Below are positions 1 through 11,053 of a DNA stretch of 64,000 bases, one piece after another; the first letter of the stretch is position 1, and every line of letters starts with the position of its first letter. The translations under genes were made by a program, and so were the position numbers. The stretch spans positions 184,108-248,107 of the forward strand of contig JBNKHE010000007.1 of NCBI GenBank assembly GCA_050290185.1. The letters are read 5' to 3'. Under the pieces are notes generated by a model. The model saw only the letters and a list, made by a program, of their open reading frames with translations, made no database searches and was not told where the DNA came from. Origin of the DNA: Pontiella sp. GTDB lineage: Bacteria > Verrucomicrobiota > Kiritimatiellia > Kiritimatiellales > Pontiellaceae.

Positions 1-5
1 TGCGG

Positions 6-1475
6 ATGAACTACATCAACCGCGCCCGCAACTTCAACGACGCCCAGGTTCTGAAACGCTCGCAAGGGCATAGATTGCTGAACGGCATTCGAAAAACAAC
101 CACACTTGAGCGGCAGGAGATCGATAATACGGCGACGGCGCTGAAATTGCTCGCGCAGGCCATGGTTCAAATGTCGCTTCCGGCAGCCGAAGGTTCATTC
201 GAAATTCGTGCGGTCGACGCGGAAACGGTCAACATCGCCGACTGGTTTTGGCTGGAGCTATGGACCGGGGCTGATTTGACCATGTGCCGGTGCACCAGCA
301 AAAAGCAGGCAGATGCATTTTCCCGCGACGTTGCGATCGAATACGAAGCCGACTCCACGCGCTGGGCCTACACCGGCGCCGCCGGCGGCGCCGCATACAC
401 ACCGCCGGATCTTCCGGAATACCTACCCGAAACACACATCTTCCAGCAGCTCATCGAGACGCCGCGCTTTATGTCGACCGGAATCGACCTGATTACCGCC
501 GTTGGGCGCGCCCACAGCCTGATAGTCGGTTTCACGCCATACTTTGCCCTCGATGCCGACCCGACCTATTCAACCGCCTTGAAAATAGAAAATTCGGCGG
601 TAAACCATTTCGGCCTGCCTGTTGAAGTGAAGAACGCAACCGGGACCGCAACGGATCTTGTGGTCACCCCGCTCAACAACGATGTGACGGAATACGAAAG
701 CGTTGCCGCCGCCGCCCAGCAAGCCGGAGAGCTGCTGCTGTTCATCGGGGACGAAATAATCTCCTTGCGCGACCTGTTCATCAACGGAAATGATTTGGAG
801 CTAGACAGTACGTTGCGCGGGTTCGGCGATACCAAGCCGAAAAACCATGCAGCAGGGGCGCAGGGAATCATCATTTACGCCGCCGAAGCCTTTAGGATCA
901 ACCCGGCTCCAGGTGAAACCACGAACCGGAACATCAAGCTCCCAGCCGAAACGCTGCTGGCGGTGCAGGATCTTGATGAAGTCGACCCGATCCCATGGGT
1001 ATCCGAACTTCGGATAAATCGTCCGCTCAATATATCGGCGCTCACCATCGAAGGAGAAGTGTTGCCGAAACCGGCGCACCACTACAATTTGGCCGATTAT
1101 GATCTGGTATCAACCCCGGCATGGAACGCCTCTGTTTCAATGACCGTGGCAAAACAGGACTGGTCGAGCCTGGGATTCATCTCGGCAAATTTCTACACAG
1201 CCGCCGACCTCTACACCCGCGTCCGTGCCTACGGAGCCGACGAAGTAACCTTGATCGGCGACACCAGCAGCGCAAACGCGACATTTTCCGTACCGCTTGC
1301 ATCCGAAGGCCACGCAACCGGACATCTCGAAATAACCACCTATCACCCCGATACGCCAGAACTGGAAAGCCAAGTTGCTTTGCGGATCGACATAACCTTC
1401 GGAACGCCTGGCTACGCGGTAGACGCGAACGGCGACTTTGCAATCGATGGAAACGGCGATTACGCCACAGAATAG
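6..1475 (+). CDS. Phage tail/host-specificity (tip attachment/baseplate hub-like) protein, probably 5'-truncated by the window edge
   Basis: Segment LLFIGDEII...LRGFGDTKPKNHAAGA resembles C-terminal parts of GTA-like/phage tail proteins; position before fibre and lysis genes. Confidence 0.65.
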   Translation: MNYINRARNFNDAQVLKRSQGHRLLNGIRKTTTLERQEIDNTATALKLLAQAMVQMSLPAAEGSFEIRAVDAETVNIADWFWLELWTGADLTMCRCTSKKQADAFSRDVAIEYEADSTRWAYTGAAGGAAYTPPDLPEYLPETHIFQQLIETPRFMSTGIDLITAVGRAHSLIVGFTPYFALDADPTYSTALKIENSAVNHFGLPVEVKNATGTATDLVVTPLNNDVTEYESVAAAAQQAGELLLFIGDEIISLRDLFINGNDLELDSTLRGFGDTKPKNHAAGAQGIIIYAAEAFRINPAPGETTNRNIKLPAETLLAVQDLDEVDPIPWVSELRINRPLNISALTIEGEVLPKPAHHYNLADYDLVSTPAWNASVSMTVAKQDWSSLGFISANFYTAADLYTRVRAYGADEVTLIGDTSSANATFSVPLASEGHATGHLEITTYHPDTPELESQVALRIDITFGTPGYAVDANGDFAIDGNGDYATE

Positions 1476-1484
1476 GAGAAAACC

Positions 1485-1922
1485 ATGGCATACGACATCG
1501 GCCCGAACACATGGGCAAAAGTGAAAGCGTTCTTCGACCTGATAAGCGCTATTGCAGCTGGAAAAGTCACGCTCGGCGGAGCCTTGGATTTAACCACAGA
1601 CCCGACCGGAGGCGATGGAGTTGGAAACCGCGACTACAACGATGCGCGCTACGCGACCGCAGCGCAAGGAGGTTTGGCGGATACGGCGCTGCAGCCCGCC
1701 GACGTTGGCACCGCCGCCGCCCAAGACGTCGGCTATTTCGCGACCGCAGCGCAGGGAGGTCTGGCCGATACAGCGCTGCAGCCCGCCGACGTCGGTACCG
1801 CAGCCGCTCAGGACGTCGGCGCTTTTGTGCCGACAGACGGCTCCGTCTCATCCATCACATTTTCGAACGGCGCAAAGCTGGAAATTTCCGGCAGCACACT
1901 GGTCATCACCGCCGCGCCCTAG
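1485..1922 (+). CDS. Small tail-fibre-like repeat protein
   Basis: AGGAG RBS; two 29-aa repeats ATAAQGGLADTALQPADVGTAAAQDVG. Confidence 0.6.
   Translation: MAYDIGPNTWAKVKAFFDLISAIAAGKVTLGGALDLTTDPTGGDGVGNRDYNDARYATAAQGGLADTALQPADVGTAAAQDVGYFATAAQGGLADTALQPADVGTAAAQDVGAFVPTDGSVSSITFSNGAKLEISGSTLVITAAP
1652..1820 (+). repeat. Intragenic tandem duplication, 87-bp period, two copies
   Basis: gcgaccgcagcgca(a/g)ggaggt...gacgtcggc repeated with synonymous differences. Confidence 0.85.
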
Positions 1923-1955
1923 TTGACACGTCCTGCCCAATAGGAGGCTATACCC

Positions 1956-4109
1956 ATGAAAAATAGAAAATCACTTGTTGTCACACTGATTGCTTTGTTG
2001 TTCGCGCTGCCGTCATTTGCGGCCAGCCTTAACCAAATATTCAACACCAGCCCATCTCCCATCACCAACAACAACGATGGAGTCAGCCAGTTGATCAAAG
2101 TCAAAGGATCTTTGGCCGAAAACGACGTGCTCGTCTACGACGGCCTTGGAAACGTTGTTTCCGCCGGAGTCTCACCTACCAACTTGGTTGTTTCTAGCAA
2201 CAGCTACACCAAGGCGGAATCAGACGCGCTTATTGCCACAAAAACCGATTCCGTTTCAAACGCGCTGTCTGTCGTGATCGGGTTTAAGCAAAACGCCAAC
2301 ACGGCCAACGCCAACAACGCCACGCTCGCACAGGGCGATTTGGCAGATTCCTCTATCCAGCCTTCCGACCTGCTTTATACGGCCCAACTTGATGGGTTGC
2401 AGCAACTGCTTACCTCGTCTGTTGGAACGAATGCAATTGCCACGTATGGTAAAAATGCCGAAATCATCAGTGTTAATTGCTTGGATTTCGATGGGACAAA
2501 TTCATACGTGAAAATGCCATTCACCACGGATGTAGGAGCGTCCGACTTTTCATTCCACTGTACAATCAACCCGGATATTGTATCGGGCGCTGCCAAAACG
2601 ATTTTTTCCCACGGAGAGGTATCAAGCAACAGCAGGAGTTGCTGGGTGGTATTAGCAAATGGCCTTTTATCCACTAGGCTTAGCGCCGACGGGACGGCAC
2701 AAACTGAAGTTATTGGCGGGACCGCGGTGCCAACAAATACATGGACTTCGTTATCCGCATACAAGACTGGATCCAGCATATTCTACTATTACAACGGATC
2801 CCTTAATCTGGCGGGTACGACCGTATCGTCTCTTCGCAATTCTGGCGGCTACGCATACACAGGATCACGGTACTCAGGAACGGCGATGGACTACCCATTC
2901 AACGGAAAAATATCGGATGTACACCTCGATATTCTTCCAACAACGCTCGATGTATATCTCTATATTGGACAATCGAATTGCGAGGGTAATCCAGGGGAGT
3001 ATGGAACACTGCCGACCATTTTGCAGGGGGAAAACTTCCCGTTCTTCGAAGCCTCAATAAACCATGGGACGCAAACCAAGCGCGGAACCTTTCTCAAGCC
3101 GTTCAATTCCACGCAATGGGGGGCTGAGCTTGTATTTGGACAGGTTATCACCCAGCGTGCACAAAAGCGCATTGCAATTGTAAAGGTATCTACTGGAGGT
3201 ACTTCGCTGGCCGTTGATTGGCAGCCAGGGGGAGAGCAGTACACCCAACTAACAAACGCATGGGCAAATTTCGAGACTGACATGGCATCGGCTGGATATA
3301 CGATTGGTGATGTGCGCGGGATTTGGATGCAAGGCGAGAAAGACGCCCAATCGAACTTGTGGGCGAATGCTTATGTCGAGAACTACGACAACATGAATGC
3401 AAGCTTCGAAAACGATACTGGCGTAGAACTGGTAAATACCACATTTTGCCGCATAAACGACGAGGGCAACCCCGGGTCGGACAGAGTACGCGCAGCATTG
3501 GTTGAGCTTGGCAACCGACCGGGAAATACATGGATAGATACGGACTCGATGCCGCGTCGTCCAGACGGCGTGCACCTTGACCCCGATGGGTTGCAAGCTC
3601 TTGGTACGGCCATCGGCAATGCCGTTGTTGTCAATGCGGCAAACAATGCAGATCCGGTTTTCTGGAATGTTTATTCAGAAGGATCATCGACCAATATTTA
3701 CGACGTGTCCGGCAATACCAATACCGGCACCGCAGTCAGTGCATCATGGACAACATCCAGCGGAATCGAATCTTGGAACCACCTAAAAGGGTGGAGCATG
3801 AGAGGTGCAACGGATGCATATATACCGGCGTTATACAATCTTTCCGGAGACGCTTCTGGCGGTGCGCTACAGCACCTTGGCGGGTTTGTCCACAACGGGA
3901 GCGAGTGTGACTTAATACTCTGGGATGGGTCCACCAACACCTACGTCAACCTACTGGAGTCGTCGTCCTACGCCTCTAATAGCGACCCAACAAATCGGTA
4001 CTCATCGGTTGGAACGGGCGGAAGAATAACGACATTTGCGGCATATACCAACAACCTTCCGGTTGCGTCGGATACCAGGCTGAAGGGCTTCTTGGAGTTG
4101 CAGAAGTGA
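1956..4109 (+). CDS. Signal-peptide protein with LamG-like domain and SGNH/sialate O-acetylesterase (SASA)-like domain; putative receptor-binding or lysogenic-conversion protein
   Basis: AGGAGG RBS; N-terminal MKNRKSLVVTLIALLFALPSFA; LDFDGTNSYV...FNGKISDV (LamG); GQSN, WMQGEKD, DGVH (SGNH esterase motifs). Confidence 0.75.
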   Translation: MKNRKSLVVTLIALLFALPSFAASLNQIFNTSPSPITNNNDGVSQLIKVKGSLAENDVLVYDGLGNVVSAGVSPTNLVVSSNSYTKAESDALIATKTDSVSNALSVVIGFKQNANTANANNATLAQGDLADSSIQPSDLLYTAQLDGLQQLLTSSVGTNAIATYGKNAEIISVNCLDFDGTNSYVKMPFTTDVGASDFSFHCTINPDIVSGAAKTIFSHGEVSSNSRSCWVVLANGLLSTRLSADGTAQTEVIGGTAVPTNTWTSLSAYKTGSSIFYYYNGSLNLAGTTVSSLRNSGGYAYTGSRYSGTAMDYPFNGKISDVHLDILPTTLDVYLYIGQSNCEGNPGEYGTLPTILQGENFPFFEASINHGTQTKRGTFLKPFNSTQWGAELVFGQVITQRAQKRIAIVKVSTGGTSLAVDWQPGGEQYTQLTNAWANFETDMASAGYTIGDVRGIWMQGEKDAQSNLWANAYVENYDNMNASFENDTGVELVNTTFCRINDEGNPGSDRVRAALVELGNRPGNTWIDTDSMPRRPDGVHLDPDGLQALGTAIGNAVVVNAANNADPVFWNVYSEGSSTNIYDVSGNTNTGTAVSASWTTSSGIESWNHLKGWSMRGATDAYIPALYNLSGDASGGALQHLGGFVHNGSECDLILWDGSTNTYVNLLESSSYASNSDPTNRYSSVGTGGRITTFAAYTNNLPVASDTRLKGFLELQK

Positions 4110-4141
4110 GTAAATCAGCACGTGCTTGAAAGGGGGGTATA

Positions 4142-4396
4142 ATGCCTGAACATGTTAAGGTAAGCGCAGTGAGTGCCGTGGTCGGCGTATTCATCACGTT
4201 CGGATCAATATTCATCGCCACCGGAAGCTACCGCCAAAAACTGGATGATACCTCCAAGGAAATTGTTCAGCACCGCGCGGATATAATTGCTTTGTATACC
4301 ACGTCGAAGGGACTTGAGCACGACATCCAGGACATCAAGCAGATGCAGCAGGAATCCCGCGCGGACATAAAGACCCTGTTGATCAGAACAAAATGA
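4142..4396 (+). CDS. Small membrane protein, single TM plus coiled coil (holin-like)
   Basis: N-terminal hydrophobic helix; position in lysis region. Confidence 0.5.
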   Translation: MPEHVKVSAVSAVVGVFITFGSIFIATGSYRQKLDDTSKEIVQHRADIIALYTTSKGLEHDIQDIKQMQQESRADIKTLLIRTK

Positions 4397-4434
4397 TTTC
4401 CGGCAATGGGGCCGGGATTAGTGGAGGTCAAAAA

Positions 4435-4719
4435 ATGAAGAAAAAGTTTAGCATGCTGATGGTATTGGCCGTTCTTGCCCTGGTGATGGCGGCTATGCCG
4501 TCGTTCGCCCAGGACGCGGGTGCCGAGGCCGTTGCCAGTGCATCGGATGGCGGCCTCTTGGCGTGGTTGTCCCGGAACATGGGCGCGGTGTTCGGAATCG
4601 TAACGGCAACGCTCGGGGTTCTGGCGATGGTCTGCAAGCTGACACCATCGCCGAGGGACGACGCAATCGTCGCCAAAATCCTTGGCTGGCTCAACATGTT
4701 GCCGGTGAAAAGGCAGTAG
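4435..4719 (+). CDS. Small membrane protein, holin-like
   Basis: GGAGG RBS; signal-like N-terminus, TM helix and TPSPRDD motif resembling small phage membrane proteins. Confidence 0.55.
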   Translation: MKKKFSMLMVLAVLALVMAAMPSFAQDAGAEAVASASDGGLLAWLSRNMGAVFGIVTATLGVLAMVCKLTPSPRDDAIVAKILGWLNMLPVKRQ

Positions 4720-4720
4720 C

Positions 4721-5086
4721 ATGTTGAAGGCTGCTCTACTCGCATTGCAGGAGTGGCTGCACTGGCGGCGCGTCATGGCTGAGATCCAGGCGCGCCGCTT
4801 GGTTTTGACGGAGCTTGAGCGCGTCGAAAGGGAAATCGATGAAATCGAAGACGATATCGAAAAGCATCGCCGCAATGGCGATCATGCTGATGCTGACCGG
4901 TTGCTTCTCGCAATCTCGCGTAGAGCCTGTTTTGAGCGGGGGATACTTGACCTTGCGGAAGGGGCAGGTTTTCACCGCTCGGAAAGACTGCGTTTTGGTG
5001 GATCTGGAGATCGTGGAGCAGAAGGACGCGATAATCATCGATCTGATCCGGTCGCAACGGAAGCAGGAAGTGAAGCAGCTGGTTGA
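4721..5086 (+). CDS. Coiled-coil protein, putative Rz/i-spanin-like
   Basis: Heptad-rich ELERVEREIDEIEDDIEK; encloses an out-of-frame lipoprotein gene. Confidence 0.45.
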   Translation: MLKAALLALQEWLHWRRVMAEIQARRLVLTELERVEREIDEIEDDIEKHRRNGDHADADRLLLAISRRACFERGILDLAEGAGFHRSERLRFGGSGDRGAEGRDNHRSDPVATEAGSEAAG

Positions 5087-5090
5087 ATGA
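4839..5090 (+). CDS. Overlapping lipoprotein, putative Rz1/o-spanin-like
   Basis: MKSKTISKSIAAMAIMLMLTG|C lipobox; purine-rich GAAAGGGA upstream; +1 frame within 4721-5086. Confidence 0.6.
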   Translation: MKSKTISKSIAAMAIMLMLTGCFSQSRVEPVLSGGYLTLRKGQVFTARKDCVLVDLEIVEQKDAIIIDLIRSQRKQEVKQLVE

Positions 5091-5335
5091 AAGCAATTAC
5101 ACTGTTCATTTTAATGTCGATCACCGGATGTGCAACGCGCGTCACAACCTGCACATGGGGTCCGGATCCCGGGAAAAACATCCTCAAAAAAACCACGGTA
5201 AGCCATTCATGGTGGCTTGGTTTGCCAGCAATTGCACCGATGGATTCATCCGTTAAAGACGGAGAGTTCCAAGTCGAAACAAGAGCAATGAAAGTCCCGG
5301 ACGGATGGTTCGGCGTCTACCGGGATCAAAACTGA
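5087..5335 (+). CDS. Small lipoprotein
   Basis: MKAITLFILMSITG|C lipobox; ATGA overlap with previous ORF. Confidence 0.65.
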   Translation: MKAITLFILMSITGCATRVTTCTWGPDPGKNILKKTTVSHSWWLGLPAIAPMDSSVKDGEFQVETRAMKVPDGWFGVYRDQN

Positions 5336-5364
5336 TTTAGCTGGGCTCCTCCTCTCTCCCGGCG

Positions 5365-5395
5365 GCCTCCCTTGCTTCGGCGAGGGAGGTTTTTT
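5365..5395 (+). terminator. Rho-independent terminator ending the phage late operon
   Basis: GCCTCCCTTGC-TTCG-GCGAGGGAGGT followed by T-run. Confidence 0.85.
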
Positions 5396-5399
5396 ATTT

Positions 5400-5515
5400 C
5401 TCAGCATTGTATATAAACGAAATATAAACGGATATATATTGAATATACGAAATACAGCGCAAAAACACCATAAAACAGCGTTTTTGATCCGATTGTTTTA
5501 GGGTAAGAGCCCACC
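5400..5515. other. Putative attR: AT-rich arm with direct repeats plus core GTAAGAG
   Basis: ATATAAACG at 5411-5419 and 5422-5430, related ATATACGAAATA near 5443; junction to rnpB at ~5501. Confidence 0.6.
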
Positions 5516-5673
5516 GCCCCAAGGGTAACCGAGGGGGCAGGGTAAACCCCGTCCGGAGCAAGATCAAATAGGGAATCGAGGAACGGCCCGTTCCGCAGGG
5601 GTTCCGGGTTGATCGCACTAGATAAATGATCGACTCCGCAAGGAGAACAGAATCCGGCTTACCGCCCTGACTG
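5501..5673 (+). ncRNA. rnpB: RNase P RNA (type A), 3' half only
   Basis: GGTAAGAGCCCACC (L13/P13 3' strand), GGTAAACCCC...GGAGCAAGATCAAATAGG, CTAGATAAATGATC, AACAGAATCCGGCTTA (CR-V); the 5' GAGGAAAGTCC half is absent upstream. Confidence 0.92.
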
Positions 5674-5676
5674 CTT

Positions 5677-6342
5677 TTATCCTTTTGGCAGCTTTTTTTG
5701 CTGGATCACTTCAAAGGCCAACCGCTCCAGAGCTTTGCCGTTGGGTAGATCCAGCTTGTTCTTGATATTGATGCGGTGGGTGTCGACCGTATTGCGGCTG
5801 ATGTTGAGTTTTTCCCCGATGGTTATCGAGTCGTGACCTTCTCCCAACAGCTTGAAGATATCCATTTCGCGGTTGGACAGCGTGTCGAGCAGCGAATGTT
5901 TTCCCGACGTGCGACCGTTCATTTTCTTTTCGATCCGTTCCTGGATGTCGGGATGAAAGCAGAGGTTGCCGGCGAGTACGGAGCGGATGGCCTGCTTGAG
6001 CTCGGCGGGCGGCGTGGTCTTCATGACATAGCCGGTCGCCCCGGCCATTGCCGTCCGTTCCGCGAACAGACGCTCTTCGGACATCGTGTAGACCAGCATT
6101 TTAAGTTTTGGGTAGGTGGTATGGATGCGCTGGATCAGATAAGTCCCGTCCGAGTCGCCCAGGGATAGATCAATGAGGGCCAGATCCGGCACATCCGACT
6201 CGAGCAGCTCCATGGCTTCATTGGCCGAAAAGGCCATTCCAAGAATTTCCATATCGGGTTCGTTGGATAAGAGAATTTTCAACCCGTCATGAATGATAGG
6301 ATGATCGTCGATGACCATAACCGAATGCTTGTTGTTGTTCAT
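5677..6342 (-). CDS. NarL/LuxR-family response regulator
   Basis: REC domain (IDDHP, DLALIDL) plus LuxR HTH (LSNREMDIF...TVDTHRINIKNKL). Confidence 0.92.
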   Translation of the reverse strand: MNNNKHSVMVIDDHPIIHDGLKILLSNEPDMEILGMAFSANEAMELLESDVPDLALIDLSLGDSDGTYLIQRIHTTYPKLKMLVYTMSEERLFAERTAMAGATGYVMKTTPPAELKQAIRSVLAGNLCFHPDIQERIEKKMNGRTSGKHSLLDTLSNREMDIFKLLGEGHDSITIGEKLNISRNTVDTHRINIKNKLDLPNGKALERLAFEVIQQKKLPKG

Positions 6343-10968: not shown

Positions 10969-11053
10969 TGGTGGTGGGGGATGGATTCGAACCATCGAAC
11001 TCGTAGAGGGCAGATTTACAGTCTGCTGCGTTTGACCGCTTCGCTACCCCACC
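10969..11053 (-). tRNA. tRNA-Tyr(GTA), CCA encoded
   Basis: Reverse complement GGTGGGGTAGCGAAGCGGTCAAACGCAGCAGACTGTAAATCTGC...GGTTCGAATCCATCCCCCACCACCA. Confidence 0.97.

Follow-up and report, generated by a model that had tools for sequence, protein, structure and literature searches.

Why should a prophage end in half of the gene for RNase P RNA, and where is the rest of that gene? The window analysed here, a stretch of 64,000 nt from a Pontiella genome (C7:184108-248107; the assembly comprises 3.58 Mb in 163 contigs and is 95.5% complete), opens with the late genes of a phage. A preliminary description, made from the letters of the window, noted that just after these genes, at 5400..5673, the sequence turns into the last ~170 nt of rnpB, and supposed that the phage had integrated within that gene and brought a replacement for its 3' half. 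The rnpB gene is essential, universal and single-copy. We consider it very probable that a temperate siphovirus-like phage did integrate in the middle of rnpB by means of a tyrosine integrase, replacing half of the gene and leaving its host with a chimera.

The prophage and its two copies of rnpB

The 3'-terminal 177 nt of a class A rnpB are present at the end of the phage genes and begin inside hairpin P13 (Table 1). When positions 5200-5900 were scanned at an E-value threshold, RF00010 (RNaseP_bact_a) matched 5200-5677 of the plus strand with 70.6 bits (E 2.2e-21). The alignment is confident from GGGUAAGAGCCCACC at ~5501 to the final model position, 367, at 5677, and what lies 5' of P13 is treated as an unaligned insertion. 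Read directly, the terminator hairpin with its T run (5364-5400) is followed by 103 AT-rich nucleotides and then, at 5501, by GGGTAAGAGCCCACC. The fragment holds the 3' strand of P13, P14, the 3' strands of the P5-P11 stack, P15-P17, the 3' strand of P4 and the 3' strands of P2 and P1, and every helix internal to it is intact. The 5' strand of P13 and all that precedes it were said to be missing and are so: the motif of the 5' strand of P4, GAGGAAAGTCC, is absent here with the remaining 5' half, and occurs 37.8 kb upstream in a full gene. The gathering score of RF00010 is 100 bits, of which the fragment falls short, as expected of half a gene. Hence, it is missed by routine annotation, and a default scan of the whole window at the Rfam gathering threshold called a tRNA-Tyr alone. 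This tRNA-Tyr(GTA) gene (10969-11053, minus strand), the only tRNA gene of the window, has no association with the prophage.

Searching the whole genome with RF00010 revealed one full-length rnpB (C7:151636-151984), on the same contig and strand as the fragment. It scores 244.7 bits over model positions 1-367 (cut-off 100 bits), lacks P18, as do the 17 aligned genes of the same genus, and has two non-canonical pairs, in P1 and P2. Aligned over 180 positions (3 gaps), its last 178 nt and the fragment agree at 155 (86%), with identity starting at GGGTAAGAG. The shared core starts at C7:151807 in the full gene (attL) and at C7:189608 in the fragment (attR), 37,801 bp further on and in the same orientation, so that a direct repeat bounds the element and the intact gene lies on the side of the integrase, whose start is 73 nt past it. 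A 5' half of rnpB with a divergent 3' duplicate, next to an integrase at the other end of the prophage, is what had been predicted from the window, and all of it is there. The split or protein-only RNase P offered as the alternative is ruled out, since besides the intact rnpB the genome encodes rnpA elsewhere (PF00825, 82.6 bits); the enzyme is thus of the normal RNA-plus-protein kind.

The 37.8-kb element between the two copies is a complete siphovirus-like prophage. It starts with the tyrosine recombinase, encoded beside the attachment site (357 aa; PF00589, E 5.3e-14; phrog_1, E 2.5e-43). The interval also encodes a peptide deformylase, an FtsK-gamma protein and two DNA methyltransferases (C5 and N6/N4), together with packaging and head proteins (TerS, TerL, lambda-type portal, S49 head protease, major head protein) and tail proteins (tape measure, tail protein, SASA-esterase/LamG protein). 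In the locus numbering of the early region, the two methyltransferases occupy L004:11123-14149 and the peptide deformylase L004:14346-14804. The right end of the element falls in the window, where positions 5250-5800 hold four terminator-like sites against 0.8 expected from shuffles.

Table 1. Features of the prophage right end, its junction with the host and the adjoining DNA (window positions unless a contig is named)
Feature	Position	Strand	Basis
Prophage portion upstream of the window (integrase to tape measure)	C7:151985-184107
Prophage right (late-gene) end	1-5335	+	ORFs and profile matches
Tail protein	6-1475	+	phrog_1101, E 7.6e-9
ORF	1485-1922	+
717-aa SASA esterase and LamG protein, probably tail fibre	1956-4109	+	PF03629, E 1.1e-21; PF13385, E 3.6e-11
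Four small ORFs	4142-5335	+
Intrinsic terminator ending the last phage operon	5364-5400	+	12-pair stem GGCCTCCCTTGC..GCGAGGGAGGTT, then TTTTATTT
AT-rich P arm	5398-5500	.	Predicted arm-type sites ATAAACG at 5413-5419 and 5424-5430 (11 bp apart); ATTGAATATA at 5438-5447
attL/attR identity block GGGTAAGAGCCCACCGCCCC, must hold the crossover	5501-5520	+	Alignment of the two copies
Parts of the block: P13 5' strand GG	5501-5502	+
Parts of the block: L13 GTAAGAG	5503-5509	+
Parts of the block: P13 3' strand CCCACC (GCCCC comes after it)	5510-5515	+
Displaced, non-functional host rnpB 3' half (predicted attR)	5501-5677	+	RF00010, 70.6 bits, model to 367; P1 complementarity
LuxR-type response regulator gene, host flank	5677-6342	-	PF00072, E 2.7e-20; PF00196, E 2.8e-13

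The site is empty in relatives. Of 41 related genomes, 36 have a match to RF00010, and 13 of 29 rnpB loci from relatives, none of which is a genome of the same species, have homologues of both host flanks around a single uninterrupted rnpB. The upstream flank gene encodes a CT398-like zinc-ribbon protein. In six loci of the same genus (L007, L009, L010, L012, L017, L034) the homologue of the response regulator starts ~30-90 nt past the uninterrupted rnpB, and in one of them, L009, the upstream gene, rnpB and the downstream gene all lie inside 3.3 kb. As both flanks adjoin an unbroken rnpB in relatives, the 37.8 kb are an insertion into this gene; the comparison with prophage-free relatives that had been called for thus speaks for integration.

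Could the fragment instead be a decayed paralogue of rnpB or a product of the assembly, with no relation to the phage? The genome is a draft in many contigs, and at the gathering threshold the fragment goes uncalled. Yet, the phage DNA gives way to the fragment with no gap and the host gene order continues right behind it; the helices of the fragment have not decayed, and the integrase and the arm repeats described below mirror it at the other end of the element. Public sequencing runs also bear on this point. The stretch is present in four of them, all from one study (X1-X4), and in small shares in X5-X20. X1-X4 were compared as Logan contigs, and a contig of 213 nt (X1 record 2) spans the junction between arm and fragment without a difference. 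A misassembly at ~5500, which would have undone the integration reading, finds no trace in it, although X1 may be the source sample of the assembly and the contig is then not independent support. Taken together, we regard a paralogue or an artefact as exceedingly improbable.

Which 3' half belongs to the host

The two 3' halves can be told apart by one pair of helix P1. This pair is Watson-Crick in 17 of the 17 aligned rnpB genes of the genus (13 G-C, 4 A-T). Here, the 5' strand has a T at this position; the attR fragment offers an A, which pairs, and the expressed copy a T. The resulting U.U is a mismatch for cmscan and is unpaired in the minimum free energy fold of the expressed gene. The P1 3' strand of the fragment, CCCTGACTG, is in fact fully complementary to the host 5' strand, CAGTCAGGG, and that of the expressed gene is not. 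The strand borne by the phage, CCCTGTCTG, would suit hosts that have an A in place of this T, such as those of L016, L017 and L021. Hence, the covarying pair assigns the fragment of the window to the host 5' half as its original partner. With the native half displaced, the expressed gene would be a host/phage chimera, in line with what the preliminary description had supposed. The lysogen's sole RNase P RNA, we hold with high confidence, consists of the host's 5' 171 nt and the phage's 3' 178 nt.

Under this chimeric arrangement, attP would carry a functional-looking version of the last 178 nt of rnpB, and the integrase would recombine at the stretch of identity around P13 and L13. The attL gene would then be made of the host promoter, the host 5' part and the phage 3' part, and attR would be the orphaned host 3' half. 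P1, P2, P4 and the P5-P11 stack would each pair a strand encoded by the host with one encoded by the phage. The differences between the copies do not disturb the hairpins within the exchanged half: they are compensatory (GTTC..GAAC against GATC..GATC, and CCCC-GCAA-GGGG against CTCC-GCAA-GGAG), and the others are compensatory in hairpins too or fall in loops, such as L14, where GCAA and GUAA are both GNRA. The 244.7 bits of the chimera are within the 212-256 bits of full-length relatives. From the score range, the compensatory changes and the essentiality of rnpB, we infer that the chimeric ribozyme is active.

Resemblance to relatives has to be interpreted with care. In the gene of one congener, L013, identity to the phage-type 3' half is 91.2%, against 83.6% to the fragment; similarity to relatives alone therefore does not mark attR as the host's copy. 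The P15-P17 hairpin of this same gene (G001:C338) is of the phage-allele type (GGCGACGATGATGCGGCCCGCATCGC...), unlike that of the 16 other aligned genes of the genus. Either the phage allele came from the lineage of L013 or this lineage kept a phage allele.

One might speculate that temperate phages of Pontiella spread functional half-ribozymes, each lysogeny swapping in a 3' allele that co-evolved with another host. We put this forward tentatively, as a possibility on the doubtful side. If it were true, phages would be a source of mosaic evolution of rnpB, and the phage allele would be under purifying selection within the host enzyme. For a phage, P13 of rnpB is a very stable and widely conserved attachment site, provided that the half ribozyme of the phage folds with the half of the host. 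In any case the locus is a clean natural example: the prophage is complete and both its junctions are available, relatives show the site empty, and a covariation names the native half.

The crossover site and the relatives of the integrase

Recombination requires a stretch that is identical in both partners, and by the standard inference the part of the target gene in attP is limited to what lies 3' of the crossover. These two considerations point to the 20-bp block at the start of the fragment. Identity begins at GGG. To the left of 5501 the two sequences are unrelated, being phage arm at attR and host rnpB at attL, and the first mismatch comes at 5521 (A in the fragment, G at attL). Thirteen of the 17 aligned genes of the genus have the block without change. 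It contains a 6-bp stem with a 7-nt loop, which we take to be P13 and L13, and the homology begins 2 nt ahead of the loop. The full gene contains GGTGGGGTAAGAGCCCACC, i.e. the hairpin GGTGGG-GTAAGAG-CCCACC, an exact match to the stem-loop that had been predicted for the intact attB. To judge from these letters, the crossover most likely took place in the 7-nt L13 loop, between inverted GTGGG/CCCAC half-sites. This is where it had been supposed to be: the block does include the loop, and the crossover is placed no finer than the block. The left half-site of the core is degenerate in attP, with TTAGG against GTGGG (3/5).

On both sides of the core there are short repeats distinct from it, as in attP of the lambda type. 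The P' arm, the 72 nt from the full rnpB to the integrase, has the same three motifs as the P arm, in the same order and orientation (C7:152000, 152011, 152028). The arms have eight 7-mers in common against 1.1 in shuffles, and 2 of 2000 shuffles reach eight. ATAAACG, twice, and ATTGAATATA are thus plausible candidates for the arm-type sites to which the integrase would bind. Between the arm-type repeats and the core, the P arm also has a 27-nt imperfect inverted repeat, CAAAAACACCATAAAACAGCGTTTTTG (5460-5486), which may be a site for an accessory factor.

The distances in this arrangement invite another reading of the same prophage and gene, in which the crossover took place late in rnpB, perhaps in an identical 23-bp block near the 3' end, ACAGAATCCGGCTTACCGCCCTG; the expressed gene would be mostly native to the host and the 150 nt of rnpB that precede the crossover at attR would be a passenger copy of the phage. 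Measured from L13, the P' arm sites are ~190-235 bp away, a long distance for attP of the lambda type, and with a 3' crossover they would be at a more lambda-like 28-70 bp; yet the 3' block lacks any inverted repeat like GTGGG/CCCAC with a 7-nt spacing, and the boundary of homology coincides with that of P13. Blocks of identity do exist further 3' (36 and 23 bp), and the P1 evidence requires only that the crossover be upstream of ~5665. But a passenger that is not expressed should decay, and the fragment retains all its helices; moreover, the tmRNA-type attP-like sites described below also begin their homology at the loop. The P15-P17 hairpin cuts both ways, since the attL type resembles that of the congener L013 and the attR type is found in four of the five relatives that are nearest in the 5' half. 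Finally, a contig of X2 fits an arm joined to attL-type letters at 5521 and 5526, which is a weak hint against the 3' crossover. We think that a crossover near the 3' end is improbable and retain the one in P13.

Why would an integrase choose P13? Its relatives offer a clue. The homologue in the congener G007, 58% identical, adjoins a tRNA-Leu(GAG) gene. It is the nearest one whose context could be read, and the 71% and 63% homologues (P0002, P0003) fall outside this comparison of contexts. The G007 element is bounded by a perfect direct repeat of 40 nt, 38.3 kb apart (L061, L191; G007:C2:124105-124215, 162454-162493), which starts 1 nt before the T stem GTGGG-TTCGAAT-CCCAC, whose halves are the inner five pairs of P13. 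Homologues of 54-55% and 45% identity are preceded only by a fragment, T loop plus acceptor, that agrees with the tmRNA of this genome at the 3' end. In these tmRNA-type attP-like sites the 5' strand of the stem is missing and homology runs from the loop on, as at rnpB here. Of the 59 metagenome loci of integrase homologues that have at least 300 nt of upstream sequence, 29 lie just downstream of a tRNA or tmRNA gene in the same orientation; among all 80 metagenome loci, 5 have a whole tmRNA at this place. Genes for tRNA also precede more distant homologues in viral and genome loci.

These contexts suggest that integrases of this clade target the T stem-loop of tRNA and tmRNA genes. We read P13 as a putative mimic of the T arm because the relatives use T arms with the same stem and because the motif is rare: GTGGG-N7-CCCAC has five loci in the 3.58-Mb genome, of which one is P13 and one the T arm of a tRNA. 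The integrase may accordingly have been retargeted — rather, P13 would copy the T-arm core and so allow a move from tRNA/tmRNA to rnpB. The preliminary description had invoked mimicry of the anticodon stem-loop; the geometry of stem and 7-nt loop does agree with it, and the T arm of tRNA/tmRNA is the closer analogue. A screen of other genomes for the same clade next to rnpB had also been proposed; the clade was found there in 0 of 80 metagenome, 0 of 13 genome and 0 of 8 viral loci. Close homologues of the integrase occur in two of 54 genomes of the family (G000, G007).

Is the prophage still mobile, or a fixed remnant whose integrase and att sites are relics? The integrase ORF is of full length, and R217, K240, H307, R310 and Y342, which by their positions would be the catalytic set of a tyrosine recombinase, are invariant across 22 homologues; all ORFs of the structural modules are open and the arm repeats are intact. 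The difference of 14% between the rnpB 3' copies fits any age, which leaves room for a relic. The public runs give a mixed picture. Contigs of the attL type, with host 5' letters before the core and letters of the P' arm after 5678, occur in X1-X3. Contigs with an attB or attP joint, which a remnant would lack, are absent from X1-X4, though contigs cannot exclude rare forms and uncovered parts say nothing either way. Yet, an X2 contig of 2029 nt runs from the phage arm to 5530, 30 letters past the junction, with two differing letters near its end, and an X4 contig ends at 5520. These branch patterns would agree with a second form, one where phage-type letters follow the arm (attP), and are a hint of it, with overhangs shorter than 31 nt. 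A fixed remnant is in our view rather unlikely, and the prophage is presumably still able to move.

Comparison with other attachment sites and rnpB-associated elements

Prophages and islands in tRNA genes have reportedly been classed, by Williams in 2002, according to their sublocation in the T loop or the anticodon loop. The present element shares much with them: an integrase beside an RNA gene, an attP that brings the 3' segment, a regenerated gene at attL with a 3' fragment at attR, and a likely crossover in a loop of 7 nt that has a symmetric stem half on either side, the GTGGG/CCCAC of the G007 site being the same as here. The mechanism is thus the classical one of tRNA and tmRNA genes; what is unusual is the target gene, the position in the middle of it, the replacement of half a ribozyme and the visible chimerism. 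The target being rnpB, the site departs from the standard tRNA/tmRNA-type attB. The replaced piece has 178 nt, against ~20-45 nt of a tRNA, and since the copies differ at 14% of positions the outcome is a real chimera and not an identical gene restored. Integration in the T loop of tmRNA (ssrA), used by the more distant integrase homologues mentioned above (54-55% and 45%), has its crossover near the 3' end, unlike the mid-gene one here.

The closest parallel outside these genes is the Enterococcus phage phiEf11, for which integration in ffs (4.5S RNA) was presented in 2025 as a novel attB (PMC12540744). The known non-coding RNA targets listed in that article are tRNA/tmRNA and csRNA only (PMC12540744). 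Both cases involve a temperate phage and an essential, stable RNA gene other than a tRNA; ffs differs in having an identical core of 27 nt without a large diverged replacement, and in the phylum of the host (PMC12540744). A full-text search of open-access articles returned no report of rnpB as attB.

Other elements nevertheless appear to be associated with this gene. IMGVR_UViG_3300045988_174042 (46,105 nt, classed as complete with direct terminal repeats, CheckV 100%) has the same 96-nt rnpB 3' end at both termini (L086, L150). Genes for a radical-SAM/SPASM enzyme and for an ABC transporter adjoin this repeat and could be RiPP-like cargo; an integrase is ~2 kb away. In two provirus fragments (L107, L103) a full rnpB is directly followed by a tyrosine integrase. 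The integrases of these other elements resemble that of the prophage remotely at best, with 22% identity over 148 residues, or 35% over 40 residues. An orphan rnpB 3' end of ~95 nt also occurs in G033, from another family of the order, immediately after a HAD-hydrolase gene and near a contig end (L038 4307-4401; G033:C33:46307-46401); it may be an old attachment scar. The intact rnpB of G033 is on a separate contig with a secretin gene after it. The elements from IMG/VR and G033 use the last ~95 nt of the gene, unlike the mid-gene P13 here. Several integrase lineages use rnpB, usually near its 3' end. Among the 151 genomes of the class, extra pieces of rnpB were confirmed in this genome and G033 only, and the P13 site with a 178-nt replacement is restricted to this genome among these 151 and the IMG/VR contigs examined. 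Such sites are probably under-counted, since orphan halves are missed at the Rfam gathering score.

If our reading is right, the rule of tRNA/tmRNA integration also covers a large ribozyme and a site in the middle of a gene, and a clade of integrases may find new targets by way of a structure that resembles its core site. Integrases with an attB in every bacterium might also be of interest when prospecting for genome engineering.

Several candidates did not hold. The weak additional RF00010 matches of G147 and G185 (17 bits) were unconfirmed by blastn, and a break in G018 is explained by a 99-nt contig overlap. The second rnpB of G010 is not an att fragment; it is a partly degenerate duplicate of the whole locus at a contig end. 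The two versions of that locus (L037, G010:C209; L011, G010:C85), one of which has substitutions that break P13/P14 pairing, probably reflect a strain mixture or low-coverage error. Five viral contigs end just past rnpB (L118, L081, L084, L137, L119) and seemed promising. In the one examined, L084, coaD-like and ferredoxin genes separate rnpB from a P4-type integrase that is 1.1 kb upstream, and rnpB is probably not the site of this integrase.

Viral sequences at large gave few matches. The fragment had none by blastn among 50,697 GenBank phage records, and the exact 25-nt pattern of arm and core had none in the viral contigs. A 15-nt rnpB motif gave more than 118 matches in viral contigs, 80 of which were examined; nhmmer found homology to rnpB in 47 of these, the other 33 being chance matches of the 15-mer. 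Seven IMG/VR contigs of 160-460 kb (L078, L088, L093, L111, L139, L141, L146) have full or reduced genes resembling RNase P RNA next to genes for RtcB, RNA ligase or tRNA-synthetase-like proteins. They are either huge phages with an RNase P RNA of their own or host DNA mis-binned as viral.
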